From Myxococcota bacterium (GTDB taxonomy: Bacteria > Myxococcota_A > Polyangia > Nannocystales > Nannocystaceae), in assembly GCA_039028615.1 (NCBI GenBank), contig JBCCHT010000021.1, forward strand, positions 128,001 through 192,000: 64,000 nucleotides of DNA, written 5' to 3'. Positions 6,450 to 33,909 of this stretch are shown one piece after another. Within the stretch, counting starts at the first letter, position 1. Each line of letters starts with the position of its first letter. The position numbers and the translations under genes are program-made. The notes under the pieces are model-generated. The model searched no databases. It was not told where the DNA came from and saw only the letters and a list, made by a program, of their open reading frames with translations.

Positions 6450-6458
6450 GGTTTGCGA

Positions 6459-8237: not shown

Positions 8238-8284
8238 CGGCAGTGGCAGCCATGGGTTGCGCCGACCCGTGTAGTGTTTGGCGA

Positions 8285-9883: not shown

Positions 9884-9886
9884 CGC

Positions 9887-9937
9887 TTGACAGATTAGGT
9901 CACGCGACCTAGATCCTCAACTAGGTCACGTGACCTA
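9887..9937. promoter_or_regulatory. Divergent sigma70 promoters with two TetR operator palindromes
   Basis: Operators TAGGTCACGCGACCTA (9896-9911) and the perfect palindrome TAGGTCACGTGACCTA (9922-9937). Plus-strand promoter TTGACA(9887)-17-TAGATC; minus-strand promoter TTGAGG-17-TAATCT. Confidence 0.8.
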
Positions 9938-9952
9938 CAGCGAAAACGAGGA

Positions 9953-10924: not shown

Positions 10925-10939
10925 GCCCGTCGCGGTGCC

Positions 10940-13565: not shown

Positions 13566-15997
13566 TACAGCACTCCCATCTTCTTCAGCGACCACCCGCG
13601 GAGCTTGAGGTTGCACAGCCCGCATAGGTGGTCACTGGTGAAGTCGTAGTTCATCAGACACTTGAGGTCGGCGGGGTCGTGGTGGTTGGTGGAGAACCCG
13701 GGCGCAGGCGCCTCGTTTCGGCCCGCGGGTGCGTGGCACAAGTAGAAGGTGTGCCCCATCTCGTGGGCGATGACCGGCTCGGCGCCCACCGTGTACACAT
13801 TGTTGGGGTTGTTGCGCACCGCGTCGGGCAGGAACACCAGCAGCATCGCGTGGCGAGCATCGGGCAGGGTCTCGGACGACGGGGCCACGCCGCCGGTTCC
13901 CGACGGAACGATCGTGTGCGTCCCGTTGCGGTTTTTGACCCGGATGGTGTCGACGACGTGGAACGTGATGAACCCGCGGTTGTTGGCCGTCGCGGTCTCG
14001 ATCATGTACTGGGAGCACGCGAGCTTGAAGCCGTGCATCGCCACGTTGCCCAGCTTGTAGAGATAGTGAACGGAAGTGTCGGAGTGCATGTTCCCCATCT
14101 TGGACAGGTGCGCTTGGTCGATCTTGGCCTTCTTGTTGTCGTTGAGGTTGTTGTAGAAACTCAGCAGGTAGGTGGAATCGTCGGCGTTCTGGTTCGTGGT
14201 GTTCCGCCACCGGTTGTAGTCGTTGCGGGGCCCGTTGAACTTCCGGTTCTTTTGCAGGACATACTCGCGGATCGTCTCCACCAGGATGAGTTGTTTGAAC
14301 ATCGCGTGCTCCCAGATAGTCAGCGCCGCGTGGGTGGTGCTGGCGGCCTGGCTGATGCCCCGCATCGAGGCTTCGAACTGGTTGAACCAGTCCGGCACGG
14401 GCAAACCGCGTTTCGCGTCTTGGATACCCCGCTTATCGAGCAGGGTCCGGTTCTTGATGCGGTCGAGGTACGTGGCGTAGTTGTTCTGGAACGCGTTGTC
14501 CTCGTTCTGCGTCCAGGTGAGCTTGACCCCGGCCAGGGCGTGCTGTTGGGAGGCCCGAGCCACGTTGGAGGCCGACACCGATGGCGCCTTGCGGATGTAG
14601 CGAGCGTTGACCTCGCGGACCATGTCGAAGAGTCCCGTGCTCGCTCGGGGCAGGTCGGGGAAGTCCGTCGTGCGAATCGTGGCCGCGGGCGTCTGCGTGT
14701 CGAGCACGGGGGCTCCGCTGATGTTGGCGACATAGGCCGAGACCTTGTAGGTGTCGCGGGCCATCCGCGACGGCTGGAACAAGACCCCCGAGTATCCCGC
14801 ATGGTCTCCCGTGGTGTGAGGGCGGCTGAGCGCAGCCCAGTCACGAGTGCCGCACGCTCGGACTTCGAACGCGAACTTGTTCGAGGGCAGCGAGTTGGGC
14901 AGCGGCCTAGCGTTCGCGGGGAACACGGCGCCGCCGCCTCGCTTGCCGCCGTAGTCCGCGTGGCAGTTCGTCGACCCCGAAGGCCCCTCGTTCGACTTGT
15001 AGGGCAGTCGTCGCCGTAGAGCGAGGTAGGACGAGACCGCGTCGTTCGTGTAGCGCGTGTTCAGCAACGCCATCTCGTCTTCGCCCTCCCAGTCCCACAT
15101 GATGTCGAGGCCGGCCAGGGCCTTGGCGCTGTCGCCCCCGTGCACGGCGTCGCCGTTGGCCTTGGTCAAGGAGATCTTGGCGAGGAGTGGGATCCGGGGG
15201 CCGTCGCCCCATTGCTTCTTGTGGTTGTCGTGCAGGTAGTCTCCCTTCATCTGCGACGCGCTGGTCAGGAACTGATTGCACGGCATGACCACGGGCATGC
15301 GCTGGGTGGTCACGGCCGAGTTGGTCAGCCCGGTGATGATGCTGGCCTCGTGGGCCCGCGTATCCTGCTTGAACTTGTTGTCCACCGAGCTATGGGCCGC
15401 CGTGGGCAGGAAGTCGGTACCGCCCCAGCTCAGCTCGATCTTCTTCACCAGGATGTCGAAGTAGGTGAAGCGCTCGACGTAGCCGTCTTCGACCTGGTCA
15501 CCCTCGGCGCGGGCCTTGAGCATGTAGGGAGAACCAGCCGCGGTGACGACCCCATCGGGAAAGAGCTTCTTGTCGATCCACTCCTTCTTCGGGAACTCCC
15601 CCTTCCACGCGTCCTTGAACGTGAGCTTCTTGGCCGCCTTCGCATCGAGGGTGCGCTGCCAGATGGGCGCCCCCGAGCCGGCCCGGAACAGCTCGAGGAT
15701 CAACGTCTCGGCATTGTCGGGTTGCACGAGCTTCCACGAGATCTTCACCGAGTCCACGGTGGGCGCGAAGAAGAAGTGCCCCCGCCGGCCCGCCGCGATC
15801 GCCTCGTGATCGCGGGCCTCGTACGACGTCGACGACCCTTCGCACGTCAGCTTGAGCTCGCTGATGCCCCACGTCTTCTTGCAGTGCTTGCGGTCGTTGA
15901 TGGGGGTCTTGGAGCCTCCCTCGAGATAGCCATCGACCAAGGGGTTTTTGGGCCCCGTGAACATCGAGAATTCGATCTTGCCCGGATACGTCGCCAT
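13565..15997 (-). CDS. Large basic protein with C-terminal zincin metallopeptidase motif; candidate secreted effector
   Basis: AHEMGHTFYLCH (HExxHxxxxxH), Met-turn-like CLMNY and CGLC; Lys/Asn-rich; no signal peptide. Confidence 0.75.
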   Translation of the reverse strand: MATYPGKIEFSMFTGPKNPLVDGYLEGGSKTPINDRKHCKKTWGISELKLTCEGSSTSYEARDHEAIAAGRRGHFFFAPTVDSVKISWKLVQPDNAETLILELFRAGSGAPIWQRTLDAKAAKKLTFKDAWKGEFPKKEWIDKKLFPDGVVTAAGSPYMLKARAEGDQVEDGYVERFTYFDILVKKIELSWGGTDFLPTAAHSSVDNKFKQDTRAHEASIITGLTNSAVTTQRMPVVMPCNQFLTSASQMKGDYLHDNHKKQWGDGPRIPLLAKISLTKANGDAVHGGDSAKALAGLDIMWDWEGEDEMALLNTRYTNDAVSSYLALRRRLPYKSNEGPSGSTNCHADYGGKRGGGAVFPANARPLPNSLPSNKFAFEVRACGTRDWAALSRPHTTGDHAGYSGVLFQPSRMARDTYKVSAYVANISGAPVLDTQTPAATIRTTDFPDLPRASTGLFDMVREVNARYIRKAPSVSASNVARASQQHALAGVKLTWTQNEDNAFQNNYATYLDRIKNRTLLDKRGIQDAKRGLPVPDWFNQFEASMRGISQAASTTHAALTIWEHAMFKQLILVETIREYVLQKNRKFNGPRNDYNRWRNTTNQNADDSTYLLSFYNNLNDNKKAKIDQAHLSKMGNMHSDTSVHYLYKLGNVAMHGFKLACSQYMIETATANNRGFITFHVVDTIRVKNRNGTHTIVPSGTGGVAPSSETLPDARHAMLLVFLPDAVRNNPNNVYTVGAEPVIAHEMGHTFYLCHAPAGRNEAPAPGFSTNHHDPADLKCLMNYDFTSDHLCGLCNLKLRGWSLKKMGVL

Positions 15998-16000
15998 GGT

Positions 16001-16417
16001 TCACCGAGCCTGTGCCTGGGGCGCGGCGTCGTCGGCCTCCCGCGGAGCAGATGCCAAGTAGCCTTCGCCCTCACTCTGGGCTCGCAGGGCGTCGGCCTGC
16101 AGGCGCGACGTCTTGAACGAGGCAGAGCCGGGCCCCGAGAGGATCTGGCCTGCCCATGCGAAGCGAGCATCGCCATCGAAGTCGCGGCCGAACACGAACA
16201 TCAGCGTCAGGTAGCGCAGCAGGTCTCGCTCGGTGCGGAGGCCATAGGTCAGTCCCCGCTGCACGCAGTGCTCGATGGCGTCATCGATCTGCGCGGCCGA
16301 CAGCGCGTGTATCTGCTCGGCGAAATACTCTCGCAGGTGGACCCGCGCTCGCCCGCGAAACGGGTCTACGTCGTCGCGGACCATCGTCCACAGCTGGTCG
16401 GAACGAATCGTCAGCAT
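16001..16417 (-). CDS. Small helical protein resembling the C-terminal module of DUF4123-type T6SS chaperones
   Basis: MLTIRSDQL...F...HLREYF...GLTYGLRTERDLLRYLTLMFVFGRDFDGDARFAWAGQIL pattern; GAGGAG RBS. Confidence 0.6.
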   Translation of the reverse strand: MLTIRSDQLWTMVRDDVDPFRGRARVHLREYFAEQIHALSAAQIDDAIEHCVQRGLTYGLRTERDLLRYLTLMFVFGRDFDGDARFAWAGQILSGPGSASFKTSRLQADALRAQSEGEGYLASAPREADDAAPQAQAR

Positions 16418-16689
16418 GTGTGCTCTCCTCTCGAGCTCGGCCGATTCCACGGCCATGCCCGGGGAGTGACTGGAGGGCCCGCGGTTGTTCAGCTCGCGAG
16501 AAAATTCTCGAGTTTGCCTGCGAATGGCCCTCATCGCCGTCTACGCGCGGCTACGATGCTCGACGACCGCCAACGCAGTCGCTGCAATTGGGCGGGTCGC
16601 GGCTCGAGCGCCGGACACCGGATCTTCGTGTCCGTGTGCGTGTCTTCGGATTGGAGCTCGAACGAGCGCGGCCCAGAGCCCGCCCTGGA

Positions 16690-17481
16690 TCAGAGCCCGG
16701 ATACCAGGCGCAGCTCGCAGTCACCCGTCGCGCCCAGGCCCTCGAGGCGCACGACGCCTCGGTCGTCGCTCTGACATTCGTGCACGGAGCCATCCGGTGC
16801 CACGACTTCGCAGGCTTGGTTGGCGACGGGCTCTCGGTCGGGATCGAGCAGGACGCACTCGAACCAGTCGTCGGTGGCTTCGAGCGGCGGCGCAACATCG
16901 GCCGAAGGCGAGAGCGCGGGCTGGTGGGTCAGCGGCGTGATGCGGTACTCGCCGCCACGGGGCAGTTCGTCGTAACGGATGAGCCCATCGTCGTCGGTTC
17001 GGGTGACGAAGGGCGGGGCATCGGGAGGCTCGACGAGGCAGCGCTGCCCCGCGATGGGGTTGCCGTCCTCGTCCTCGAGCCGACACTCGAAAAAGTGCAG
17101 GGTGGGGGCCGGAGTCTCCGCGGCGCGCAGCGGCGTGGCGGGATCTCCCGCCGTCAGGTCTCGTAGGTCGACCGCGTCCTCGATGATCGGGGTGAAGCTC
17201 ACTCGCGATCGAGGTCGCCGATGGATCGAGATACGGGAACAGGCGCCGCAGCCGTCGAGGAGCCGTTCGATGATCCGGGAATCGACACTGCGCAGCCGGC
17301 TGCCCCACGCGAAGAGGCTGCATAGGCGCTCCAGCTGACGATGGTCACGGGCCCGCCATAGCTCGTCGACCAGCGCGCGCTGCTCGCGAGCGCTCAGCGC
17401 GGGGACCCAAGCCGACTCGGGATGAGGAGGAGTGCGAGCCTCGTAGAGGTTCCCGTCGTGGCTCAGCTCGATCGTGGTCAT
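16690..17481 (-). CDS. Protein with two transthyretin-like (carboxypeptidase-regulatory-like) modules, T6SS adaptor-type
   Basis: Repeated modules FFECRLEDEDGNPIAGQRCLVEPPD...TDDDG and WFECVLLDPDREPVANQACEVVAPDG...SDDRG; GGGAGG RBS. Confidence 0.7.
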   Translation of the reverse strand: MTTIELSHDGNLYEARTPPHPESAWVPALSAREQRALVDELWRARDHRQLERLCSLFAWGSRLRSVDSRIIERLLDGCGACSRISIHRRPRSRVSFTPIIEDAVDLRDLTAGDPATPLRAAETPAPTLHFFECRLEDEDGNPIAGQRCLVEPPDAPPFVTRTDDDGLIRYDELPRGGEYRITPLTHQPALSPSADVAPPLEATDDWFECVLLDPDREPVANQACEVVAPDGSVHECQSDDRGVVRLEGLGATGDCELRLVSGL

Positions 17482-17630
17482 TGGCAATCAACCCTCCCGT
17501 GGTGCGACCTCGTTCGAAAGAGGTCCCCAGCCGGGGCCTTCGGATCACGATCGCCGATCAGTGATCCACTCATGGCCTTGGGGGACCTCAACAGAGGGTC
17601 GGTCGCAGGTGGGAGCCCGGGCCGCGAAAG

Positions 17631-18902
17631 GTGACAGTCCGATGCAGGAGCAAACGCGCCATGTTGGGTGAGACCGCCGTCGTGGGTCGAGTCGAGGGCG
17701 GCTGGGAATCGACCACACTGTCCACGGGAGCCTCCCACACGTTGATCCTGAAGCGGCGGGTCGCAGAGCGAATCCGGGTCACGGGGATGTTCTTCGAGAC
17801 CGAAAAGAGCTTCGTGCTGCCGGGGGCGCTGGCGGGCTTGCAGAGGCTGGTGACCCTCTCCGACGCGGGTTCCGCCAAGGAGATCGTGGTGGTCGGTCAC
17901 ACCGACGCCAGTGGGTCGAGGTCCTACAACCTGCAGCTGTCGCTCCAGCGCGCACGCAGTATGGCCGCGTATCTGCGCGACGACGTGGACGCATGGCTGG
18001 ACAACTATTCGCTGTCCGATGCGGACGAGCGCTGGGGGAGCCGCGAGGATTCCCTGATGCTCGGGGCCTTGCCGATGTCTCGGTCCACGCCCTACCTGGA
18101 CGACACCACCGAGCTCCACGATGCTGCGGCCGAGTTTCAGCGGGACGCCGGCCTCGAGCCGACGGGGATGATCGACGAGCCGACGCGGCGCGCCTTGATC
18201 GAGGCCTACATGGGTCTGGATGGAACGACGCTACCCGAGCCCGTTCGCGTGCTCTGCCATGGGTGCGGCGAGTTCTTTCCGACCGAAGACTCCACGGGTC
18301 CCACCGATCCTCGCGACCGCCGGGTGGAGCTGTTTTGCTTCGACCGCGCCATCGATCCCGAGCCGCCTTCGGAGGCGCCGAGCAAGGCGGACTCGCCGTA
18401 TCCGAAGTGGCTCGGCGCGGTCTCGAAGACTCACGAGCTGTCGGTCGACGGCGAGGGGGACGAGCTGCGCCTGACGCTTCTCGACGACGGCGGGGAGCCG
18501 ATGCCGGGTGCACCCTTCGTCGTGCGCTTCGCCGGCTCGATGCCGTTCGTGGGACATGCCGACGGCGAGGGCGTGGCCCATATCCCGACGCCGGCCATCT
18601 GCTCGGAGGACGTGGCCGTGAGCTGGGGAGGGCCCGGGGCGCAAGAGGGCCACGCGTATCACCGCCGGATCTTCGTCGACTGTGATGCTGGCGACGAGCC
18701 AGCGAAGATCGAGCGCAAGCTCCACAACCTCGGGTTCTCGCCCGACCTGGGGCTCGATGCTGCGGTACGGGCGTTCCAGCGCGAGCATGAGGTCGACGAT
18801 GAACCGGTACCCGTGGGTGCTCCGCAGGGGCAGCTCCCCGCGGGGACGGCTGCTCGTCTCGACGAGGTCTTCGACGAACTGTCTCGCGAACAGGTGGGAT
18901 GA
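17631..18902 (+). CDS. OmpA-like domain + peptidoglycan-binding + transthyretin-like protein
   Basis: VVGHTDASGSRSYNLQLSLQRA and DRRVELF (OmpA); FQRDAGLEPTG and AVRAFQREH (PG-binding); LLDDGGEPMPGAPF. Start uncertain (17631 or 17661). Confidence 0.8.
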   Translation: MTVRCRSKRAMLGETAVVGRVEGGWESTTLSTGASHTLILKRRVAERIRVTGMFFETEKSFVLPGALAGLQRLVTLSDAGSAKEIVVVGHTDASGSRSYNLQLSLQRARSMAAYLRDDVDAWLDNYSLSDADERWGSREDSLMLGALPMSRSTPYLDDTTELHDAAAEFQRDAGLEPTGMIDEPTRRALIEAYMGLDGTTLPEPVRVLCHGCGEFFPTEDSTGPTDPRDRRVELFCFDRAIDPEPPSEAPSKADSPYPKWLGAVSKTHELSVDGEGDELRLTLLDDGGEPMPGAPFVVRFAGSMPFVGHADGEGVAHIPTPAICSEDVAVSWGGPGAQEGHAYHRRIFVDCDAGDEPAKIERKLHNLGFSPDLGLDAAVRAFQREHEVDDEPVPVGAPQGQLPAGTAARLDEVFDELSREQVG

Positions 18903-21065: not shown

Positions 21066-21586
21066 GGCGGGCACTGCCTGATCCTCAATCTATCGCATGA
21101 ACTCGGCACGAGCGTTCGTTGCAATTTGGGCCGCGGCGTCGAGCAACGGAGGGTGACGACGATGGCCCCTACACCTACGCCGTGACTCGGGGTTGGCATG
21201 AAGGCGCACCCCCGAGGCTCGCGGTGAAACGACCACTCGCCTCGAGGACGAACCGGATCACAGTTCTGCGTAGGACGTGCTGTTTCATGTCACGTTGAAA
21301 TCTACTCACATGCTCGTCGCTACATTCGCTCGCTTCCGATCGTACGAGTGGTCGTTGGATCGGTCTCGGGGCGTCGCGACGAACGTGAGACCGGCTCGGA
21401 ACACGGTGAGAGGACGCGGCTTCGAGCGAGGTGTCCCGATCGAGTTCTGGCGTTCGGCCGGGTGTTGCTTGGGCTATCATTGGGTGGCTTGGGTCGGAGC
21501 TTGGTAGCCGTCGTCGCGCGTGCGCGAGTCGGAGTCCGGCGGAGCATGGATGCTTGGTCGAAGTTCGAGGCAGGAGGCAAACAACG

Positions 21587-24500
21587 GTGAGATCGGAACA
21601 GACTCGACATGGATGTACCGTCGTCGCGGTGAGCGGCACGCATGGGGTGGCGCTCGCGATGGGGTGGCCGCAGGGACAGACGCAGGACCTGCTGGGGTTC
21701 GCAATCTCGCGTCGTGATGGCGGGGGGGAGCCGACTTGGTTACCGGTGGTCGTGCAGTTCGAGGGTCGGCCGATCGAGACGGGCAAGCTCTACCCGTCGA
21801 ACGAGTCGCCGATTCAGTCGATGGTGTGGAACGACTTCGGGGTCTCGGACGACAAGACCAGCCACGGCCTGCCCCCGGACACCGAATTCACCTATTCGGT
21901 CGCACCCGTGCGCGGGACCCCGGACCAGTTCCAGGTGTGCGAGGACCAAGCGGTCGCGGTCACCGTGCGCACCGAGCCCGAGTACGCCGAGAAGGGAGCC
22001 TCGGTGTTCTTCAACCGCGGGCTGTCCGATTCGCAGGAATACGAGCGCCTATTCGGCGAAGGCCACGTGCCCGATCCAAACAAGCCCGAGGACGCCGAAG
22101 CGATGGCCTGGCTCGCGCGGGGGCTGGATGTCGCCATCATCAAGTTCATCGAAGAGGCCATCGACGACGAGAGCCTGACCCTCGACGCGGCCGTGTATCA
22201 CCTGGACCATCAGGGGGTGATCGATGCGCTGGCCAAGCTCGGCAAGCGTTGTCGGGTGTCGATGGACTGGGGCAGCGAGGAGGAGCACGCCGATCCTCCC
22301 AATACGGGCCCCAACCAGCCGGCCTACGATCGGCTGACGAAGGCGGGGGTGACGGTGCATCAACGCCGGCACGTCGCCATCAGCCACAACAAGTACATGC
22401 TGCTCAAGGGAGCCGACGGCAAGGGCAAGGCGATCCTCACTGGTTCGACCAACTTTACCAACGGAGGCATCAGCACGCAGTCCAACCAGAGCGTGATCGT
22501 GCGCGACCCCGAGGTCGCGGCGGTGTACCTCGAGGACTTCGAGCGCGTGCTGCAGGACGACAACAAGGGGCTGCGCGAGTTCAACGCGCAAGGGGAGGTC
22601 ATCAGCGACTCTCTCGAGGTCTACTTTTCGCCGCACAGCGCCAGCGACACCCCCGATCTCGACCGCTTCAAGGCACTCGCTCGAGACGCCGAGTCGAGCA
22701 TGCTGTTTTTGACCTTCCGAATGACCTCGCACGAAGTGCTCTCGGAGATCTTCAGCCGCGGTGACTCGCAGGACGACGACCTGCTGGTCTTCGGCGTGGC
22801 CGACCGCGTCTATAAAGGCAACGACGGCAGCGGCGACCGCCTGATCTACGACGAGTCCCTGGCGGGCGACCCCCGCGTGGTCTCGGCCGCGGACCCTCTC
22901 GACGACCTCTCGGAGGAACCGGGCGAGGACGTCCTGTACGACGAGCTCAAGCGCGAGGGCTACGACCCGCTGGTCCATCACAAGATCCTGCTGGCGGACT
23001 GGGACAGCCCCGAGTGCACGGTGGTGACGGGCTCGGCGAACTACTCCAACAACTCCAGCAAGAACAACGACGAGAACTCGCTGGTGATCCGCGGAGACCA
23101 GCGGCTGGCACAGCAGTACTTCGTGGAGTTCGCTCGGCTCTATACCCACTGGCGTGGTCGCTGGCTGGAGGAGCGCAACTACAAGCACGAGCATCAGGCG
23201 CTGACGCTCGCCGCTGACTCGAGCTGGACGAAGACCTGGTACTCGGGCAGTCGCAACACCGAGCTGCTGAAGTTGGCGCTCGGGGCGGAGGCATTCGCGC
23301 GGACGATGGAGCCCACACCAGCGGAAAAGGTCGCGCGGGAGGCCGCTCGCAAGGCCGCGGCGCCTCGGATGGAGCACGTCATCGTGCTGATGCTCGAAAA
23401 CCGCTCCTTCGATCACATGATGGGCTTCCTGCCCGGGGTCGAGGGCGTGCTGGGCGACGACGGCAAGGTCGATCCGGCTCGCTACAACTACGCCGATCCG
23501 CTCGACTCGACCTCCGCCAAGTACACGGTGGGCCAGGCGGAGTACTTCGCGATCCCTGCCGACGATCACAAAGACGAATACGGCGGGCCCTCGCACTCCT
23601 ACCCGGCGGCGACCGAGCAGATCTTCGGCCAGAAGTATCAGCAGTCGTCTCCACCGGGGAGCGAGCCGGCGGTGAACAACGGCTTCATCAAGAGCTACAT
23701 CAAGGAGCTGAAGTTCTCGCAGAAGGTCGATGACCCCAAGGCGAAGCATGTCCGGGTGGCGATCGATGCGTTCTCGCCGACGCAGATGCCATCCATCAGC
23801 ACGCTGGCCGAGGAGTTCTGCGTGTGTGACCACTGGTACTCCGAGGTCCCCGGGCCCACGGAACCGAATCGGCTCTTCACCCATGCGGCGACCTCCGAGG
23901 GGCTGACCCACAACGTGTGGGACCACGCGATCCAGTCGCGGACCATCCAGGAGAACTTGGCCGCCAAGGGCCACTCCTGGCGGTTCTACTACCAAGATCT
24001 GAGCGACTCGAATCAGTTCCCTGCGCTCAAGCGGGAGGTGGACCAGGTCCGGCCGTTCGAGAAGCTCTACGAGGACCTCCGAAGTGGGGATCTGCCGGCG
24101 TACTCGTTTCTGTGCCCCCGGTACTCGGACACCGACACGGAGTTCGCCAACTCGCAGCACGCGCCCTACGACGTGCGCTACGGCGAGCACCTCATCGCGG
24201 ACGTGTACGAGGCGGTTCGCCGTAGCCCCAAGTGGAAGAACATCCTGCTCATCGTCACCTACGACGAGCACGGCGGGTTCTATGACCACGTCTACCCGCC
24301 GCGCGATGGCGTCCACAACCCGGATGGCCTGACTTCACCGACGGCCTACGATGCCGAGCTGAACAAGTCCAACCCCGACAAGTACGGCTACCTGATGGGG
24401 GACGACTACAAGTTCACCTTCCAGCGGCTGGGATGTCGGGTTCCCGCGGTGCTCATCTCACCGTGGATCGCCAAGGGCACGGTCGACTCCACTCGCTATC

Positions 24501-25042
24501 AGCACACCTCGATCGCGGCCACGCTCAAGGAGGTCTACGAGCTGCCCGAGTTCCTGACGCGACGGGATGCGCAGGCCAACACGTTCACATCCGTACTCGC
24601 TCGAGCGACGGAAGCCCGCGACGACGCGCCGCTCACCGTGCCGCGGCCGCCGTTGCCGGGGCAGGGGTCGAACGAGGCCGCGCCCGCTCCCGGGACGAAG
24701 CCGCTGGGGGTGCTGCAGCGAGGGGTCTACGCGACGCTGACTCACCTGGACGGTCACCCCGACTCCGGCAAGCCACCGCGCGTGCCCAAGACCCAGGCCG
24801 AGGCATCGGCGTACATCAAGGAGCGCTACGACGCCCACAACGCATTCCACCACGCGCTCGCGAAGAACGGCCGCTTCGAGGTCTACCAGGACAAGGCCGG
24901 GGAGCATCGGTGGCGCCTGCGGGACGGCGCCGGGCAGATCATCGCGAGCTCGGGCGAGGGCATGAAGACCAAGGCCGAGGTCGACGCCGAGATCGAGACC
25001 ATCCGCAACCTGGCGCCGTCGGCCGACCGCGCAGACGTTTGA
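21587..25042 (+). CDS. Phospholipase D (two HKD-type motifs) + phospholipase C/phosphoesterase + DUF1508 (YegP) fusion
   Basis: PLD: SHNKYMLLK..TGSTNFT and VHHKILLAD..TGSANYS. PLC: HVIVLMLENRSFDH, GPTEPNR, YDEHGGFYDHV. C-terminal DUF1508: FEVYQDKAGEHRWRLRD...SGEG. GGAGG RBS before GTG 21587. Confidence 0.88.
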   Translation: MRSEQTRHGCTVVAVSGTHGVALAMGWPQGQTQDLLGFAISRRDGGGEPTWLPVVVQFEGRPIETGKLYPSNESPIQSMVWNDFGVSDDKTSHGLPPDTEFTYSVAPVRGTPDQFQVCEDQAVAVTVRTEPEYAEKGASVFFNRGLSDSQEYERLFGEGHVPDPNKPEDAEAMAWLARGLDVAIIKFIEEAIDDESLTLDAAVYHLDHQGVIDALAKLGKRCRVSMDWGSEEEHADPPNTGPNQPAYDRLTKAGVTVHQRRHVAISHNKYMLLKGADGKGKAILTGSTNFTNGGISTQSNQSVIVRDPEVAAVYLEDFERVLQDDNKGLREFNAQGEVISDSLEVYFSPHSASDTPDLDRFKALARDAESSMLFLTFRMTSHEVLSEIFSRGDSQDDDLLVFGVADRVYKGNDGSGDRLIYDESLAGDPRVVSAADPLDDLSEEPGEDVLYDELKREGYDPLVHHKILLADWDSPECTVVTGSANYSNNSSKNNDENSLVIRGDQRLAQQYFVEFARLYTHWRGRWLEERNYKHEHQALTLAADSSWTKTWYSGSRNTELLKLALGAEAFARTMEPTPAEKVAREAARKAAAPRMEHVIVLMLENRSFDHMMGFLPGVEGVLGDDGKVDPARYNYADPLDSTSAKYTVGQAEYFAIPADDHKDEYGGPSHSYPAATEQIFGQKYQQSSPPGSEPAVNNGFIKSYIKELKFSQKVDDPKAKHVRVAIDAFSPTQMPSISTLAEEFCVCDHWYSEVPGPTEPNRLFTHAATSEGLTHNVWDHAIQSRTIQENLAAKGHSWRFYYQDLSDSNQFPALKREVDQVRPFEKLYEDLRSGDLPAYSFLCPRYSDTDTEFANSQHAPYDVRYGEHLIADVYEAVRRSPKWKNILLIVTYDEHGGFYDHVYPPRDGVHNPDGLTSPTAYDAELNKSNPDKYGYLMGDDYKFTFQRLGCRVPAVLISPWIAKGTVDSTRYQHTSIAATLKEVYELPEFLTRRDAQANTFTSVLARATEARDDAPLTVPRPPLPGQGSNEAAPAPGTKPLGVLQRGVYATLTHLDGHPDSGKPPRVPKTQAEASAYIKERYDAHNAFHHALAKNGRFEVYQDKAGEHRWRLRDGAGQIIASSGEGMKTKAEVDAEIETIRNLAPSADRADV

Positions 25043-25054
25043 GGAGCAGTTTTC

Positions 25055-28000
25055 ATGACCGATCAGAATCAACCTGTGACCTTCCTCGACGGCGGCGGGC
25101 TCGACATCTCGAGCCAACATGCCCAGGACCTGTCTGGAGAACGCGGCGAGCAGCGCTTGCTGGACCGCTATCGGCTGATGCAGCGCGGGCTGGTCTATCC
25201 CGCGCCCTACGCCCGTTTCGTGAGCTACTGGACGGCCGAGGGCAAGTCGATCACGCGCGCGGACATCACCGCCGTGATGAAGCAAGTGCGTGACGAAATC
25301 CACGAGCGCTTTGGCTCCACCAACACGTCGGCCATCGTCGGCGTGAATTTCGATCTGTACCGGCAGTGGTGCGAAGACGATGGCGGCAGCATCCCGGCCG
25401 GTATGAAGCTGGCGTTCCCGGAGGACGGCAGCGAGCGTTCTTCGGTGTTCGACCGCTCGCGCGGGGTCTTTCAGGACTCCGAGGCCAGCCTGTGGTTCCA
25501 CATCAAGTCGGACGAGCAGGCCAACCTCGAGGGGGTGAACGAGGTGGTGTCCAAGGCCCTCGGGGACTTGGTGGGGCGCAGCGTGTACCAGGACTGCAAC
25601 CAACGGCTGCGGCCGGGGAGCGGGGACGCGGGGCGGGTGCTCGGCAAGCGCTTCGCCGAGAACCTCAACAACCCCACCGACCCGGTGACCATCGCTCACC
25701 ACACGCTGGTGGGGCACGACGACATCGAGCACCTGGGGGCGTCCTACGCCCTCGCTCAGCGCTTCTATATCAACTGGGAGCGCATCCACCAGATGGCGGA
25801 GGAGCAGGTCGAGGACATCATCGGCCGCAACTCGAACGACGAATTCCTGCCGAACCGAGACACGCGGAGCCACATCAAGTCCGCTCGACAGCAGGACGCG
25901 CAGGGCAACACCACGTTCGTGATGCGGCTCGGGCTGCCGTTCGGAGCTTCGCCCTACGCTTCACGCCCCGACCTCGCGCTGGCCGGCAACAACCGCGGGG
26001 ACGAGGCGGGAATCTACTTCGCCGGGTTCGCCAAGCGAGTGGACGTGTTCGAGACGATCATGAGCGCACAGATCGGCGACACGCCCGGCTTCATGAACGA
26101 CCGGTTGTTCAACAACCTGCGCTCCGATCTGGGCGGGTTCTTCTACATCCCCAACCGTCGCGACCTGGGCCTCGTGCCCGAGCCGTGGGCGAAGGAGTCG
26201 GAGCGAGACTGGACGCGCTTCCCGGGCATCGACTGGTCGCGGCTGTCCCGTCACTTCACCGACAAGTCACCCAACGGGTGGATGTACTACAACCACAAGA
26301 ACTATCTGTACGAGATGGCCACGATGCCGACGGAGCGGCGGGCACAGCTGAACCCGCCCTCCACGCGCATCTTGACCTTGCTCATGGACATGTTCGCCCG
26401 CTGGCAGGACGCCTGGTACTTCGCCAAGGGCCAAGACGACATGGGGTCGCTATACGACCACATCGCCAGCGACCCCGACTTTGGCCCGGAGAAGGCCAAG
26501 GAGGTGCATGGGCTGTCCATCATGGAGCGCAAGGGCTGGGCCACGCGCATGCAGTGCCGGCTCTACGCGACGGATGCCTATGGCTATCGAGGGCGGCGGA
26601 AGGTCGATGGGGTCGATCGCCCGGGCGCCGATACCTACCGGATCCACCCCGAGGAGATCATCGTGGGGGCGCTGCCGGATCTGAGCCTGGGGCAGGGCCG
26701 CTACTGCATGAAGTACCTGCGCGAGGAGGAGCGTCAGCCGGCGTTCTTCCGCGGCCTGACCGAGGCCTCCGGCGTGGGCCACGTGCTGCCCGACCATCAG
26801 AAGCTGGTCGACCTCGGGCTCGGCAGGCTCTTGGCCGAGATCGACGCCAAGGCCGAGTCGGTGGCCGATGACGACAAGCCGTTCTACCGTGCGTGCCGTT
26901 TGTCGCTCGAGGGCGTGCAGGACCACCTCGAACGCTACGCCGCGCTCGCCGACTCGATGGCGGCCGCGTGTGCGCACGGGCAGGCGGCGGAGCGCAACAA
27001 CCTCGAGCAGATCGCGGCTCGCTGTCGGGCCCTACGCACCGACCAGCCATCGAGCATGGTCGAGGCGGCGCAGCTCATCTTCACCTATCACACGTGTCTG
27101 CACCTCAACGGTGAGCCGGTCTCGGTCGGGCGTCTCGACCAGTACCTCGGGCGCTTTCACGACGCGGACATCGAGGCGGGGCGCCTCACTCCCGAGGGCG
27201 CGCAGGAGATCATCGACGCGCTGTGGGTCAAGCTCTCGGAGAAGATCCTGCAGAACCGGATCTTCATTCATGACCACCAGCCCTACGGAAACCTGGCCAT
27301 GGGTGGCGGCTCGGGGCCGTACCCGCAGGGGGCGTCGCTCGGGCAGTGGATCATGCAGGTGACGGTCGGCGGCTGGGTTGCCGACGAGGAGAAGGTACCC
27401 ACGCCCGCGTACAACGAGGTCACCCGGCTGTGCATTCGCGCCTCGGGCCGCCTGCCGCTGACGGCCCCGTGTCTGTCGCTACGGGTCAATGCCCACACCC
27501 CCGCCGACCTGCTCGAGGAGGCCGCACGCGCGGTCCTCTCTGGTGGCGCGCACCCGATCCTGCTGCACGACGACAAGATCGCGGCCGGGCTCGCGCAGTC
27601 GGGCGACGGGATCGGCGAGGGCGACCCGAACAACCCGACCGCGTCTACCCCGGTCGCGGCCAAGGCCCAGGGGCGCTGGGACAGCCAGGTCAGCATCGCC
27701 AGCGCGCGTAACTTCGCCAGCGACGGCTGCTACGAGCCGCTGTTCACCGGGCAGACCTGGTTTGCGCTGGGGGGCTTTTCAACCCTCAACCCCCTGGAGT
27801 GCGCGCTCAACCAGGGCCGTTCCTACGCGTCCGCGGGGGAGACCTTCCTGCACGGGCAGAACCTCTCGTTCCATACCCCCCCGGCGGAGCAGATCGAGAG
27901 CTTCGAGCAGCTCCTGGAGCTTTACTTCACGCACTTCCGACTGCTGTGGGCCAAGACCTTCGACGGCCAGATATCCACCTTCGACGCTCTGGCCGATATC

Positions 28001-28996
28001 TGCCCGGCGCCGCTGCTGTCGGTGCTGACGGACGACTGCCTGGCGAAGGGACAGGACATCTACGGGGGAGGGGCACGCTACAACGTCTACGCGCCGTGCT
28101 GGATCGGGCTCAGCACCACCATCAACAGCCTGTGGAACATCAAGCGCATGGTGTTCGACGAGGACTCGATGGTCACTTCTCTGGCGGAGCTGCTCGAGTG
28201 CCTGATGTGCGACTGGGGCAACAAGATGGTCGAGCCCATGGTCAGCTCGTTGATCGGGCCCAACCGCATCGCGGCCAAGGCGGTTCGGTTCCAGCGCCTG
28301 CGGGAGATTGCCTTGTCTATGCCGCGCTACGGCGAGGGCAACCCCGAGGTGGACGAACTCGGTGATCGCATCGTGCACGAGGTCGCGAGGTTGACCGTCG
28401 ACGTGCTGCGGAACCCGGCCGAGTCCACGGCCAAGAAGATGCTGGACTTCGCCAACCGGCACGGCACGCCGGAGCAGCCCTTCGGAGGCTTCCAGATCCA
28501 CCCGGGCACGGGGACCTTCGAGAACTTCTCCGCGTTTGGTGTGGGCAGCGGGGCGTCGGCGGACGGACGGCGTCTCAACGCTCCCATCGCCAGCGACATG
28601 AGTGCGGCCCCGGCACGTTCCGATGCCCCGGCCGACCCCGCGTACGTGCCCTTCGATGCCGCTCTGGCCAGCAGCGAAGGCGATGGAGCCAGCGCGATGT
28701 GGGACGGAGCGCCCACCGACTTCAACATCGACGAGACCTTTCCCGTGCAGACCCTCGCCGACATGTTCGGTCAGTTCGCCCGCGGCAAGGGCAGCAACAT
28801 CCTGACGGTGACCGTCGCGTCGCGGGAGACCTTCACCGAGGCACCCAGCCACCCGGAGTCCTACGACCTACTCCGCGTCCGCATGGGAGGCTGGTCCGAG
28901 TACTTCACGTCGATGTTCCCCGTCAGTCAGGTCCAGCACCAGCGGCGGCCGGTCATGACTCCACCCCACGACGCCGCCGACACCAAGGAGGGATGA
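25055..28996 (+). CDS. DyP-type heme peroxidase fused to a glycyl-radical enzyme (PFL-like superfamily)
   Basis: N-terminal DyP motifs GKRFAENLNNP, SHIKS, MRLGLPFG, GIYFAGF. C-terminal GRE motifs GRLDQYL, QVTVGG, Cys loop GCYEP, ASADGR, Gly loop LRVRMGGWSEYF. Confidence 0.9.
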   Translation: MTDQNQPVTFLDGGGLDISSQHAQDLSGERGEQRLLDRYRLMQRGLVYPAPYARFVSYWTAEGKSITRADITAVMKQVRDEIHERFGSTNTSAIVGVNFDLYRQWCEDDGGSIPAGMKLAFPEDGSERSSVFDRSRGVFQDSEASLWFHIKSDEQANLEGVNEVVSKALGDLVGRSVYQDCNQRLRPGSGDAGRVLGKRFAENLNNPTDPVTIAHHTLVGHDDIEHLGASYALAQRFYINWERIHQMAEEQVEDIIGRNSNDEFLPNRDTRSHIKSARQQDAQGNTTFVMRLGLPFGASPYASRPDLALAGNNRGDEAGIYFAGFAKRVDVFETIMSAQIGDTPGFMNDRLFNNLRSDLGGFFYIPNRRDLGLVPEPWAKESERDWTRFPGIDWSRLSRHFTDKSPNGWMYYNHKNYLYEMATMPTERRAQLNPPSTRILTLLMDMFARWQDAWYFAKGQDDMGSLYDHIASDPDFGPEKAKEVHGLSIMERKGWATRMQCRLYATDAYGYRGRRKVDGVDRPGADTYRIHPEEIIVGALPDLSLGQGRYCMKYLREEERQPAFFRGLTEASGVGHVLPDHQKLVDLGLGRLLAEIDAKAESVADDDKPFYRACRLSLEGVQDHLERYAALADSMAAACAHGQAAERNNLEQIAARCRALRTDQPSSMVEAAQLIFTYHTCLHLNGEPVSVGRLDQYLGRFHDADIEAGRLTPEGAQEIIDALWVKLSEKILQNRIFIHDHQPYGNLAMGGGSGPYPQGASLGQWIMQVTVGGWVADEEKVPTPAYNEVTRLCIRASGRLPLTAPCLSLRVNAHTPADLLEEAARAVLSGGAHPILLHDDKIAAGLAQSGDGIGEGDPNNPTASTPVAAKAQGRWDSQVSIASARNFASDGCYEPLFTGQTWFALGGFSTLNPLECALNQGRSYASAGETFLHGQNLSFHTPPAEQIESFEQLLELYFTHFRLLWAKTFDGQISTFDALADICPAPLLSVLTDDCLAKGQDIYGGGARYNVYAPCWIGLSTTINSLWNIKRMVFDEDSMVTSLAELLECLMCDWGNKMVEPMVSSLIGPNRIAAKAVRFQRLREIALSMPRYGEGNPEVDELGDRIVHEVARLTVDVLRNPAESTAKKMLDFANRHGTPEQPFGGFQIHPGTGTFENFSAFGVGSGASADGRRLNAPIASDMSAAPARSDAPADPAYVPFDAALASSEGDGASAMWDGAPTDFNIDETFPVQTLADMFGQFARGKGSNILTVTVASRETFTEAPSHPESYDLLRVRMGGWSEYFTSMFPVSQVQHQRRPVMTPPHDAADTKEG

Positions 28997-29000
28997 GGCC

Positions 29001-30929
29001 ATGGAACGCGCATTCGATCGAATCCTCGTGATCATGTTCGAAAACCAGTATCGCGAGTACGTGATGGCCAACCCCTATATGCGTGGGCTCGCGCGGCAGG
29101 GGATCGACATGGCCAACTTTCACGGCGTGATGCATCCGTCGCAGACCAACTACATCGCCTCGGTGTCGGGCGAGCTGTGCAACGTCACCGACGACGACTC
29201 GCCGGGCCTGCTGCCGCAGCGCACCATCGTGGACCTCATCGAGGAGGCTCCCGGTGACCTACAGTGGAAGGCGTACATGGATGGCTATCGGCCGGCCAAG
29301 ACGCCCTGGACCCCGGAGCTGGTGCCACAGGACGACTTCCCCTACGTCATCAAGCACAACCCGTTTTCATCGTACGGCAACATCGTGCGCAACGAGTTGC
29401 GGTGGAAGCGAATCGTGGACCAGACGCAGTTCTTCCGCGACGTGCTCAACGGCGAGCTGCCCCACTACGCCTGGTTTACGCCAGACATGTGGAACGACGG
29501 GCACTACACCGACGGGACCCAGAGCGAGCCGGCGGAGCGCGCCCCGGCCCTGGTCGACCAGCTGGCGCGGTGGCTCGAGGAGTTCTTCGGGGCGCTCGAC
29601 TTTCCTGGGCCCGACTCGAGGCTGCCCAAGGGCACCCTGGTCGTGGTGACCTTCGACGAGTCCGATTTCCTGAAGAAGTTCGATGCGGGCAAGAAGTACA
29701 CCTACGACGGTCCGAACCAGGTCTATACCGTGCTGCTGGGCGACATGATCGAGCCCGGCGTGCAGGACGGGGCCTACAACCACTACAACTTGCTGCGCAC
29801 GATCGAGCTGAACTTCGGGCTCGGCGACCTGGGCAAGAACGACGCGGGGGCGACTCCGCTGCGGTTTTTGTGGGGGCAGACCTTCGACTGGGAGCCGCCC
29901 GAGGATACGCCGATCCACACCCATGGCCACGTCGCGAGCGCGGGCCTGGGGGATGTGCTGCACGTGGTCGTCCGTGATGAAGACGGCGGCTTGCGGCACA
30001 CGACCTTCAACGGCCAGGCCTGGGGGGTGCCCCGACCGATCGGAGCTCGTTCGACCGGTCCGCTGTGCATGGCCGCGAGGGGCGACCAGCTGGTGCTGAT
30101 GTTCGCGGGCGACAAGGGGCAGCTGTCGTCGTTGACCTACGACCTTCAGCACGGCTGGTCCTCCGAGCCCGAGGCCGTGGCCGTGGGGGAGAGCCGACAC
30201 ATCGCGTTGTGTGCCTTCGGAGGCGGCAGCGAGCTGATGGCCGTGTGGGTCGACGGGGAGGCGATCAAGTCGCGCCGCTACGACGGCTCGGGTTGGGCGC
30301 CCGACACGACCGACACCGGGCACACCACCCAAGGGGCGCTGGCCATCGGTGCGATCGGCCCTTCGCTGTTCTTGGTGTTCCAGAGCGAGGATGGGGGCCT
30401 GAGCGCGGTTACCTACAACACCGCGGACTTCAACACGACGACCGTCGCCACCTCCAAGTACTCGGGACCGTGGGATGACACCGTGGCCAACCAGTGGTCG
30501 CCGAGCGCATTCGCGGTGGGGCGTTTCGGCGCCGCAGCGTTCGAAGGGACGCCGAAGGAACTCGAGCCCGTCACCGTGCCGGTCGAGTCCGGGGCCCCGG
30601 TGGTCATGGCCGCCCACGACGGCACATTGCACCTCGCCCACGCGGGGGTGGCCAACCGTCAGCTGCTCACCGAGCGCTTCTCGGTGCCCGGTGTTCTCAC
30701 GCCCAAGCTCCGCGTCTCGTACAAGGCCACCGAGGACAAGACCACCAGCAACGGCTACGGCACGCTGGCCGAGGCCGGGTGGACGAGCTCGGAGCCCATC
30801 GACTTCAGCTGGGTCGGTGAAGGCGGGGCCGCCAGCATGGCGACCGTGGGCGACGAGCTGGTGCTGCTCGCACAGCCCGAGGCGGGCGGCCCGTTGCAGA
30901 TCCTCGTGGCGGGCTACGAGCAAGAGTGA
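29001..30929 (+). CDS. SapM/fungal-type acid phosphatase (phosphoesterase family) with C-terminal beta-propeller/lectin-like repeats
   Basis: FDRILVIMFENQ, HPSQTNYIA, KHNPF, TPDMWNDGH, TFDE, YNHYNLLRTIE; repeated Trp-containing blades after about aa 295. Confidence 0.85.
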   Translation: MERAFDRILVIMFENQYREYVMANPYMRGLARQGIDMANFHGVMHPSQTNYIASVSGELCNVTDDDSPGLLPQRTIVDLIEEAPGDLQWKAYMDGYRPAKTPWTPELVPQDDFPYVIKHNPFSSYGNIVRNELRWKRIVDQTQFFRDVLNGELPHYAWFTPDMWNDGHYTDGTQSEPAERAPALVDQLARWLEEFFGALDFPGPDSRLPKGTLVVVTFDESDFLKKFDAGKKYTYDGPNQVYTVLLGDMIEPGVQDGAYNHYNLLRTIELNFGLGDLGKNDAGATPLRFLWGQTFDWEPPEDTPIHTHGHVASAGLGDVLHVVVRDEDGGLRHTTFNGQAWGVPRPIGARSTGPLCMAARGDQLVLMFAGDKGQLSSLTYDLQHGWSSEPEAVAVGESRHIALCAFGGGSELMAVWVDGEAIKSRRYDGSGWAPDTTDTGHTTQGALAIGAIGPSLFLVFQSEDGGLSAVTYNTADFNTTTVATSKYSGPWDDTVANQWSPSAFAVGRFGAAAFEGTPKELEPVTVPVESGAPVVMAAHDGTLHLAHAGVANRQLLTERFSVPGVLTPKLRVSYKATEDKTTSNGYGTLAEAGWTSSEPIDFSWVGEGGAASMATVGDELVLLAQPEAGGPLQILVAGYEQE

Positions 30930-30939
30930 CGGGCGGTGA

Positions 30940-30975
30940 CCGAAGCCGGGCGGACCGAGTCATGCCCGGCTTCGG
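30940..30975. terminator. Hairpin between convergent transcription units
   Basis: CCGAAGCCGGGC (30940-30951) and GCCCGGCTTCGG (30964-30975) form a perfect 12-bp stem. Confidence 0.65.
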
Positions 30976-30990
30976 CGGTTCATCGGCCGT

Positions 30991-33909
30991 TCAGCGAGCC
31001 GTGTCGCACGCCTCGAGCCACTGCTCCACGTCTGCGATCTCATTGGACGCCCCAGGGCCGTATTCGACGTAGGCTTTGTGGGCGCGTCGGGCGAGGGCGC
31101 ATGCCTCGTTCGAGGGGGAAGCCGTGCCGGTCATGACGCGGGCCTGAACGAACTGCACGCTGGCGAGAATGTCTGGGTGACCCTCGATCGCATCGGCGAT
31201 TGCTGCGGCGTGGTCGGCGTGGTGCTTTGCCCGATCGAAGTCGCGCTGCTCGACCGCGACATCGGCGAGGCCCACCAGGGTCCGCGCCGTGGCGGGGTGC
31301 TCGGGACCCAGCGCCCATTGCTGGACATCAAACGCCCGCTGCAGGTGCTCTCGTGCGTCCTCTAGGCGCCCCATCTCGATGAGCAGGAGGCCGAGGTAGC
31401 AGTCGTCGTAGGCGACGAAGGGATGATTGGGGCCGAGGTGAGCCAGCTCGATCCGCCGGGCACTTCGGTAGGCCTGCTCGGCATCTTCGAATTTGTGCTG
31501 GGACATGAGGATATGGCCGAGGTTGGCGAGGATCGGAGCGAGCGTATGGTGCTCTCGCCCGTTTGCCCGCTCGACAAAGCGGAGCTTCTGGCGGGTGTGT
31601 GCCTCGGCCTCGGCATAGCGTCCCTGGAGCGCCTCGAGGTTGGCGAGGCGCCCCACGAGCCGCTCGGGAGCGAGCTCGGGGTCTGCAGAGAAACCCTCGG
31701 CCATCTCGATCGCCCGGCCATAGGTGATCCGGGCGTCCTCGAGCTTGCTCTGGCAGAGCAGCACGTCGCCTAGCATGAGCTGGACCTTCGAGGCATCCGG
31801 TGACGTTGGGGACGGCAGCTGCCCGTGGATGTCTTCGGCCTCACGGAGCAGCCGTTCCGCGCCGACACAGTTCCCCTTCTGCTTGTCGATGCGGGCGAGC
31901 AAGAACAACGCGTTGGCGACGGCGGGGTGATGAGGACCCAACGAATCCCGGCGGGCATCGAGGGCCCACGTGGCGTGTCCTGCGGCGGCCTCGAATCGGC
32001 CCTGCTCCATCAGCGTGGCGGCCAGGCCGTGGTGGGTGTTGCCGACGAGCTGGTGATGAGGCCCCAGTCGCGATGCTCGCTCGGTGAGCGCACGACGATG
32101 GAAGCTCTCCGCCTCGCGGTAGCGACCGTTGTCGTCGAGGATGGTGCCCAAGGTCTGATGGACCATGGCCTGCGCGAGCACGTCGTCACGACGTCGGGCT
32201 AGGGCCATCGCGCTGGAGGCCCACGTGATGCCGGCTTGGTGCTGGGACGCGACGAAGCCGAGCTCATGGGCGAGACGGATCGCACTCGAGAATGCCAGCC
32301 GGTCGTATCCGTGCTCGAGGGCGACGGGATAGGCACGCTCGAGGTCACCGCGAGCCCCGTCGAAGTCACCGAGGTCGGATCGCAGGGCGCCTCGTTGCAC
32401 CCACGTCTCCACTTGCAGCTCGAGGTCCCCCGAGGCTCGTGCTCGCTCGGCGAGCGGTTCCAATCGTTCGAGCGCGTCGGCAAATCGCCCCACGTGCTGA
32501 AGCGCCTCCACGACGGCCAGCGAGTGTCGCACCTGAGTCGCGAGGACCGACGGCGGCTCACTCGAGCGCTCGTCCAGGTTTTCGCAGCGAGTGAGCGGCG
32601 GCAGGCCTTCGACCAGGGTGACGGCCTCATCGACGATGCGATCGTCTGCATCAGCCAGGAGATCGACGGTCGCGGCGATGTGGGCCCGAAGGTCGCCGAG
32701 GCACCTCAGGGTGGGGTCACTGACGGGCGCTTCGGCGAGCTGACCCTCGCAGGCCCCTCGGTAGCGGCGGGCCCACGCGCCCACGTATTGGCCGAGATCG
32801 GACTCGACCCGCTCCCACGTCTCGGAGGCGTAGGGACGGCTGGTGGCGAGCAGAGACTGCTGCACCTCGAGCTGTGTCTCCTCGCTCCACACCCCCTGCC
32901 GCAGGGCTCCCTCGTCGGGGCACGCCCCCCGCCCTTGGGCTCCGAACAGGGCACCCGCCGTCGCCATCGAGCCGAGCATGACGACCAGTGCGGCTCGTCG
33001 ACGTCGGGAGCGTCGATGGCTGGCGTCGATCTCGAGCAGCAAGACCTCGAGCGAGGGCCATCGCGCGGCAGGATCTTCTCGGAGCCCTCGCCACAGCGCC
33101 CGGCGTAGCCACCGGGGCGCGGGGTGTCCCCACGGAGGCTCGGTGGGGGTGTTGCGATCGTCGTCGCCGAAGGGGAGCTTGCCGAACAGCGCCTCGTACA
33201 GGGATACGCAGAAGCTGAACTGGTCGCTGCGATGGTCGGCGACCTGTCCGTGTCGCAGCTCGGGGGCGATGTAGCCTCGGGTCCCGACCACCACGCGGGT
33301 GGAGATGGTGGTCTCCGTCAGCGGGGAGCGGCCAGGATCGGCCTGGGCGAGGCCGAAGTCCAGGACTCGAACGCGCCCGTACTCGTCGCGGATGCAGTTG
33401 CTGGGCTTGAAGTCGCGATGCACCAGCCCGGCCGAGTGCGCGGCGGCGAGACCACGGCCCGCCTGCAGGTAGGCGTCGAGGCACGCGGACCAGTGGCGGC
33501 CCGGGCGTTGCCACTCGGCGAGCGTGGAGCCGGTGACCTGCTCCATCACGATGAACGGGGTCCCGTCGATCTCGCCCACTTCGTGGATCTGGACGACGTT
33601 GGGGTGAGACAGCTTGGCGAGCGCCTGCGCCTCGTGCATCAAGCGGCGGTCGTCGGCGTTTCGCAGGCGCTCTCGCAGGAGCTTGACCGCCACCGTTCGA
33701 TCGAGCTTGGGGTCGTAGGCCTCGTAGACCTTGCCCATACCCCCTCGTCCGAGCTCGCGCTGGATGACGAAGCGGTCGATCTGCGTGCGGACGGGGCCTC
33801 CGTGGGACGGGAACAAGCGGGCTTTGATCGCGGAGCGCTGTCGCGTGCCGACCGGGTCGTCGATGGACACGCCGGCCAAGCACCGCTCGATGTCCTCGTC
33901 ATGAAGCAT
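30991..33909 (-). CDS. Ser/Thr protein kinase with transmembrane segment and TPR repeats
   Basis: [32 protein letters not shown]-terminal LGPxHP TPR repeats. Confidence 0.95.

Follow-up and report, generated by a model that had tools for sequence, protein, structure and literature searches.

Here we describe a three-gene unit in a 64,000-nt stretch of the Myxococcota bacterium contig JBCCHT010000021.1 (positions 128,001-192,000; hereafter the window, whose coordinates we use), in which two genes with phosphoesterase domains enclose a gene for a fusion of a dye-decolorizing peroxidase (DyP) heme domain to a glycyl radical enzyme (GRE) barrel. Relatives of this DyP-GRE fusion lie repeatedly and tightly beside phosphoester hydrolases of unrelated families, and we consider a functional link between the two probable. 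The common theme of the partners points to nucleic-acid rather than lipid phosphoesters. The reading that we favour, tentatively and with less confidence than either of the two parts that follow, is a mobile organophosphate-stripping cassette in which the fusion would transform a nucleoside or sugar product by radical chemistry, its radical being generated from heme and peroxide. We would hesitate a little before accepting heme-driven activation of the fusion, and somewhat more before accepting that its substrate is derived from nucleic acid.

GREs have been described as anaerobic enzymes, each of which needs a radical-SAM activase, and the words “peroxidase”, “DyP”, “heme” and “fusion” do not occur in the available text of a 2026 review of these enzymes (PMC13450708). 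A GRE that is widespread and strongly conserved, carries its own heme domain and in most cases has no activase that can be recognised would, if true, represent a new route to a protein radical, and its partner genes offer the first testable substrate class for the fusion. The broader proposition, that DyP-GRE proteins form a self-activating class which uses heme and peroxide in place of an activase, carries out GRE chemistry in aerobes on nucleosides or sugar phosphates from nucleic-acid degradation and has had unrelated nucleases and phosphatases recruited beside it at least four times, seems doubtful to us.

Phosphoesterases beside the fusion

Gene neighbourhoods were compared at 63 loci (35 groups at 85% identity, with the identical L039 and L040 merged) and five more loci, which together with the window gave 41 contexts, several of them with short flanks; six whole genomes carrying the fusion (G000, the source genome of the window, and G437, G172, G483, G1118 and G1189) formed the census. 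A context was called linked when a recognised phosphoester hydrolase lay on the same strand within 70 nt of the fusion, and this was the case in 10 of the 41. Across 50 representative loci and the window, 23 genes lie at most 70 nt from the fusion, and 19 of them encode phosphoester hydrolases, belonging to six families, these rows not being independent of one another. When each neighbour family was given one row, leaving out four mis-called open reading frames (ORFs) of L039 and same-family duplicates, phosphoesterases accounted for 10 of the 40 families inside the operon chain and for 4 of the 120 outside it (odds ratio 9.7, Fisher p 2e-4), a certainty that is overstated since the labels were post hoc and families share operons. 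A preliminary description of the window had proposed a phospholipid-headgroup pathway, to be refuted if homologues of the fusion were not linked to phosphoesterases. These counts bear out the linkage in part, but not the lipid theme: the best match is of nucleic-acid or nucleotide type for nine of the ten linked families (one EEP match being weak), and no lipid-specific family is present among the 40 operon-chain families.

The linked arrangements differ between lineages. At L059, in the L062 and L065 groups, and at L081 and L096, a homologue of gene 3 of the window lies upstream of the fusion and a PLD3/4-like gene downstream (exonuclease match E 1e-56), L059 additionally having a DNase II gene. 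The L069 group and L073 carry S1/P1, Endonuclease_NS and 5'-nucleotidase genes upstream, while beside the fusion there are a NucT-like phospholipase D (PLD) superfamily gene and a 5'-nucleotidase at L090, and an e(P4)-like 5'-nucleotidase and a trypsin-EEP protein in G437. Full-length linked fusions fall into four clades of a FastTree phylogeny, from which the partial L081, L090 and L096 were left out, with unlinked rows between them, and the linked gene-3 homologues occupy two separate parts of the gene-3 tree. Judged by the sequences, gene 3 and the fusion in the window make up another pairing of these two families, separate from that at the other linked loci. In the literature searched, which lacked most subscription papers, neither the phosphoesterase link nor the missing activase was found.

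Other neighbours recur as well. DUF2278 genes, for which no functional literature was found, occur beside the fusion in unrelated lineages (L062, L074, L075, L100, L101), and a pair of genes for a peptidase-like and a metallo-beta-lactamase (MBL) protein is another recurring neighbour. Directly behind the fusion at L039 (11891-14114) and L041 (11897-14108) are genes for a 265-aa DxD-motif protein and a TPR-S/MAP3K_TRAF_bd protein; the former has no Pfam or NCBIfam match and a weak Atlas lead to DUF2608, and was kept out of the phosphoesterase counts. On the opposite strand of L039 (14486-16276) lies a homologue of the PLD region of gene 1.

The DyP-GRE fusion and its activation

The best 120 of 348 matches to the fusion are all full length and at least 50% identical, and their source names include myxobacteria, Bacteroidota, cyanobacteria, Proteobacteria and others, which we take to be largely aerobic taxa. 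The heme domain has a proximal His (H273), a distal Arg (R291) and a Glu (E202) in the distal Asp position, all three invariant in 78 of 78 sequences; the distal Asp of GXXDG is absent, the motif reading R-F-A-E202-N with Glu in every sequence. Such a swap is described for DyP subclass P2 in the accessible text of PMC9719856. Gene 2, an N-terminal DyP domain fused to a PFL-like domain (PFL, pyruvate formate-lyase), fits the definition of that subclass, and the fusion has been in print since 2016 as “DyP-PFL”, subclass P2, without an assigned function. A 2022 survey of fungal DyPs reportedly mentions it. For a Chaetomium protein of the same architecture, the fused DyP B-PFL, the function is called “elusive” in the part of PMC5041501 drawn on here.

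The barrel of gene 2 is an eliminase/isomerase-type GRE, and not a PFL, CutC or glycerol dehydratase (GD). It contains H576, E687, a Cys loop (D890-G-C892-Y-E894-P) and a Gly loop (R1276-M-G-G1279-W1280), the DGCxEP and RxGGW loops being intact in 120 of 120 proteins. The model aligns with PflD, propanediol dehydratase (PD), GD, CutC, YbiW and HypD at Z 31.4-32.2 and a root mean square deviation of 2.7-3.0 Å over ∼700 residues, versus Z 24 for PFL and Z 19 for NrdD. PFL was rejected on the residues C892-Y-E894 instead of Cys-Cys, a TIGR01255 score of 29 versus 994 bits, and a Z score of 24 versus 32 for the eliminases. CutC was rejected at 117 versus 1050 bits, with the choline pocket residues Asp, Tyr, Thr and Tyr aligned in sequence to His576, Leu568, Phe903 and Gly907. 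As for glycerol and propanediol dehydratases, the equivalent of His164 (His576) and the CxE motif are kept, and Glu687 and Gly1153 replace His281 and Tyr640; these last two GD numbers, and part of the CutC numbering (e.g. Tyr506), are as we presume them to be. The replacement of both GD Tyr640 and CutC Tyr506 by Gly suggests, as far as an alignment can tell, a larger pocket. With the eliminase GREs for choline, glycerol and diols to which gene 2 had been likened, it shares the type of barrel but not the choline and glycerol pocket residues. A divergent, shorter relative of the fusion (∼1177 aa, 43% identical over part of the query) stands alone in G1189 (L135:5470-9003).

No radical-SAM family was found among 177 scanned proteins, mostly encoded at most three genes from a fusion, and the activase models PflA (TIGR02493) and GRE-AE (TIGR02494) stayed below cut-off in G000, G437, G172, G1118 and G1189; G483 has a PflA beside a true PFL. 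G000 contains no other PFL-like gene and no NrdD. It does encode an orphan 200-aa NrdG-like radical-SAM protein (C1:464605-465207, equal to L103:1465-2067; 85 bits versus a cut-off of 126), and similar proteins are present in G437 and G1118; both G000 and G437 have an RNA pseudouridine synthase-like gene close to it. GRE activases depend on the sequence of the Gly loop, and the R[MT]GGW loop of the fusion differs from the Gly loops listed in section 2.5 of the review, as far as its available text goes (PMC13450708). Taken together, the missing recognisable activase in five of the six genomes and this loop specificity make the fused heme domain the more likely activator, without proving it. Elsewhere in G000, ∼18 radical-SAM matches are clustered on contig C17 (∼21000-110000), possibly in a large cluster of the type that makes ribosomally synthesised and post-translationally modified peptides.

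On the favoured reading, the Nuc-like PLD region and the NPC-like domain of gene 1, together with the PF04185-propeller protein of gene 3, domains that are all present, would cut phosphodiesters and phosphomonoesters. The fusion would then take its substrate from the breakdown of nucleic acids or nucleotides, a class that we infer from the family-wide partners; most likely this would be a nucleoside, a (deoxy)ribose-type vicinal diol, or its phosphate. With the required motifs in place, a C892 thiyl radical would abstract a hydrogen beside a hydroxyl held by E894, and H576 and E687 may help to expel water, phosphate or a ring oxygen, in the manner of GRE eliminases and sugar isomerases. The radical itself would be installed by the fused heme domain and not by a radical-SAM activase, with peroxide-oxidised heme passing a hole via conserved Trp/Tyr residues to G1279 or C892; the count of conserved Trp/Tyr residues is at most suggestive of such a path.

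The three-gene locus and its distribution

The ORFs agree with the preliminary description in placing three co-directional genes 12 nt (genes 1 and 2) and 4 nt (genes 2 and 3) apart, each preceded by a site resembling a ribosome-binding site (RBS; Table 1), and a hydropathy scan confirms that none of the three has a hydrophobic, signal-like N-terminus. The start of gene 1 is a GTG codon, a placement that agrees with where 14 homologues begin; in G444, a genome of the same genus, an ATG stands at the equivalent place. A single transcript may be presumed from the spacing. The 12-bp hairpin that had been described as closing the operon is present as the core of a longer and very stable structure (-46.3 kcal/mol, z -5.8; none of 200 shuffles equally stable), but has no T-run and is absent from the terminator scan list. 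A promoter scan found no sigma-70-like promoter, there are no terminal repeats around gene 2, and the GC content at third codon positions (0.88-0.90 in genes 1-3) does not mark any of the genes as foreign. The stretch is covered without a single difference by two overlapping contigs of the one DNA run listed as containing it, possibly the source of the window and so not independent of it; no RNA run was listed.

Table 1. Features of the three-gene locus, in window coordinates
Feature	Position	Strand	Basis
RBS-like AGGAGG, gene 1	21572..21577	+	Sequence; 9 nt upstream of GTG
Gene 1, 1151 aa	21587..25042	+	PLDc_2, PF04185 and DUF1508 domain matches
RBS-like GAGGAG, gene 2	25041..25046	+	Overlaps gene 1 stop; 8 nt upstream of start
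Gene 2, 1313 aa, DyP-GRE fusion	25055..28996	+	Family models, alignments
DyP heme domain, aa 45-369	25187..26161	+	TIGR01413 105.6 bits vs cut-off 100.5; alignments
GRE barrel, eliminase/isomerase type, ∼aa 428-1304	26336..28966	+	Model pLDDT 89; structure comparison
RBS-like AAGGAGG, gene 3	28985..28991	+	Within gene 2 end; 9 nt upstream of start
Gene 3, 642 aa	29001..30929	+	PF04185 (∼aa 1-292) and beta-propeller (∼aa 293-641)
Long hairpin	30928..30991		Between convergent genes; core 12-bp stem 30940-30951/30964-30975

Gene 1 had been described as a PLD-PLC protein (PLC, phospholipase C). Its PLDc_2 and NPC4-like PF04185 domains uphold that architecture, but its PLD half is closer to nucleases than to lipolytic PLDs. 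This region (∼aa 1-560) has two motifs, H267-x-K269 without Asp and H464-x-K466-x4-D471, and a profile of 60 sequences matches Nuc (1e-16), Zucchini (4e-12) and NucT (5e-11) ahead of Serratia PLD (4e-5) and human PLD1 (0.4). The first motif and these best matches speak against a lipolytic phospholipase D; on such profile evidence the closest kin of the region are the Nuc/Zucchini nucleases, and it belongs to a large family of mostly stand-alone ∼550-aa proteins (965 representatives at E 1e-10). The PF04185 domain (aa 595-987) is closest to plant NPC4 (E 2e-66) and keeps all seven catalytic residues (E604, N605, H670, T758, H858, D893, E894). According to the part of PMC9837106 considered here, these seven residues of NPC4 are common to the phosphatase AcpA, so the domain is no proof of a lipid substrate. 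The phosphocholine-specific PLC model TIGR03396 scores gene 1 at 142 bits, against a cut-off of 580. A DUF1508 domain follows at aa 1102-1150, and 15 further full-length fusion clusters of the gene 1 type share 49-69% identity.

In gene 3, which had been called SapM-like, the PF04185 domain is well supported (61 bits versus a cut-off of 23; Atlas TM 0.87 to a PF04185 cluster). That label refers to this domain alone, and an extra propeller is present; SapM-type acid phosphatase is, we believe, a secreted single-domain enzyme. The propeller, modelled confidently on its own while the N-terminal half of the model is poor, resembles in fold the fucose-binding lectins PLL and AAL (12-14% identity, fold only). 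No solved relative of gene 3 was found by sequence, and at least 119 further full-length relatives share at least 48% identity.

The fusion is rare in the genomes surveyed: 2 of 73 from the order carry it, as do 2 of 401 from the phylum and 4 of 401 from the class, with no further copy in 401 genomes of the phylum of G483 or 182 of the class of G172; a single-query scan of the genome collection returned one locus. A conserved three-gene unit did not emerge: all three genes together, and a gene 1-type PLD-PLC fusion beside DyP-GRE, were seen at no locus examined other than the window. In G444, 31 nt separate genes 1 and 3 (67% and 71% identical), the fusion is missing from this place and the flanks differ, and G448 and G453 have gene 3 alone. 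In G444 the two-gene phosphoesterase unit adjoins a ferritin-like and GMC-oxidoreductase-like cluster, another redox module (L120:3736-8498). The only fusion locus in viral contigs, L114, adjoins an insertion sequence remnant and a cytidine/dCMP-deaminase-like gene (5595-11891) and is probably host DNA at a prophage edge.

The genome of the window (12.3 Mb, GC-rich, 96.7% complete) flanks the unit with genes for kinases, extracytoplasmic function sigma factors and a TSP3-OmpA protein, from which its gene content would seem myxobacterium-like. At 13565-18902 the window also encodes an unannotated protein of 810 aa that has an HExxH-like motif near its C-terminus, a DUF4123-like protein and an OmpA/peptidoglycan-binding protein, presumably resembling a type VI or contractile-injection cargo region.

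Weighing the readings against known systems

Several observations count against the cassette reading. No tightly linked phosphoesterase is found in 31 of the 41 contexts, among them large Pedobacter-like and Acinetobacter-like groups (labelled from match names and GC content), or in four of the six whole genomes (G172, G483, G1118, G1189). The hydrolases do not need the fusion, because G444 has genes 1 and 3 without it and G448 and G453 have only gene 3. In the window, the partners include no proven nuclease, and it is a phospholipase C domain that has the best match. The GRE fold ties across the eliminase relatives, whose substrates it does not separate. As regards activation, five of the seven conserved “linker” Trp/Tyr residues sit inside the N-terminal helices of the GRE, the orphan NrdG-like protein could activate the fusion in trans, and O2 cleaves glycyl radicals, a property not easily reconciled with the turnover of peroxide.

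An unlikely but serious alternative, akin to the stress, cell-death or defence module that the preliminary description also raised, is a conflict or cell-death module, in which cytoplasmic nucleases and phosphatases and a peroxide-triggered radical enzyme would turn on DNA, nucleotides or membranes once the cell is infected or attacked. It would suit the lack of signal peptides on genes 1-3 and (by eye, from hydropathy) on the DNase II, PF04185 and PLD3-like partners, the presence among the neighbours of TPR-S/MAP3K, trypsin-EEP and STAND-WD40 proteins and an MBL hydrolase with a LmuA match (3e-18), the very patchy spread, and the transposase genes near some copies. However, the partner nucleases and nucleotidase of the low-GC clade have signal-peptide-like N-termini, which fits scavenging; PADLOC 2.0 gave no match for genes 2 and 3 and weak DrmC/DpdK/ZacB PLD-fold matches for gene 1; and viral contigs yielded a single locus, most copies of the fusion standing alone.

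Rather less likely, the fusion is a peroxide-stress protein whose DyP domain shields a GRE that some radical-SAM protein of the host activates in trans, or whose barrel does another job, the hydrolases being co-regulated neighbours. In the accessible portions of the two DyP-PFL papers, H2O2 raises expression of the Chaetomium gene 3-fold and peracetic acid 18.5-fold, a putative activase is reported (PMC5041501), and the DyP domain is proposed as a shield of the PFL domain (PMC9719856); the NrdG-like proteins of three genomes and the many unlinked contexts agree with this. Against it, 69 of the 73 genomes from the order have the NrdG-like protein and only 2 have the fusion, so that the former is no dedicated partner; G172 (90% complete) carries the fusion without any NrdG match; activases are loop-specific and the Gly loop here is unlike those listed; and the repeated tight coupling to unrelated phosphoesterases is left unexplained.

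The phospholipid-headgroup pathway originally proposed, in which the GRE would cleave headgroups released by PLD, PLC and phosphatase, is improbable: it keeps the NPC4-like domain, the Zucchini entries named cardiolipin hydrolase, the lipid activity also attributed to PLD3/4, the tie of the GRE fold with glycerol, propanediol and choline enzymes and a pocket that a bulky headgroup (inositol, glycerophosphate) would fit, but faces a nuclease-like PLD half, catalytic residues that AcpA has too, partners of nucleic-acid type, a CutC score far below that family's, His in place of the CutC Asp, and the absence of GD His281 and Tyr640.

Returning to the favoured cassette, the run at L059 (4916-13219), in which DNase II, PF04185-propeller, DyP-GRE and PLD3/4-like genes follow one another, is like the lysosomal nucleic-acid degradation set of DNase II, PLD3/4 and acid phosphatase. 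The likeness lies in DNase II, PF04185 and PLD3-like proteins in one run around the fusion; L059 differs in its bacterial host, in having no signal peptides that could be seen, and in a radical enzyme without lysosomal counterpart. Gene 1 shares the PF04185 fold and seven catalytic residues with plant NPC4 and AcpA-type phosphatases, from which it differs by fusion to a Nuc-like PLD and DUF1508. With CutC/CutD, gene 2 shares fold and CxE motif, unlike them lacking the choline residues and a CutD and scoring far below the family cut-off. It resembles the GRE C-O eliminases and isomerases (GD, PD, HypD, YbiW, PflD) in fold, Gly loop, CxE and the His equivalent to GD His164, and departs from them in its low identity (22-26%), pocket, fused heme domain and lack of an adjacent activase; YbiW and PflD act on sugar phosphates, according to the available text of PMC13450708. 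The published DyP-PFL has the same architecture and distal Glu. In the parts of the two papers considered (PMC5041501, PMC9719856), the barrel is called PFL, an activase is assumed and phosphoesterase partners are not mentioned, whereas the barrel in the window is CxE eliminase/isomerase-like, most of the genomes surveyed for an activase have no recognisable one, and the fusion loci described here include phosphoesterase partners.

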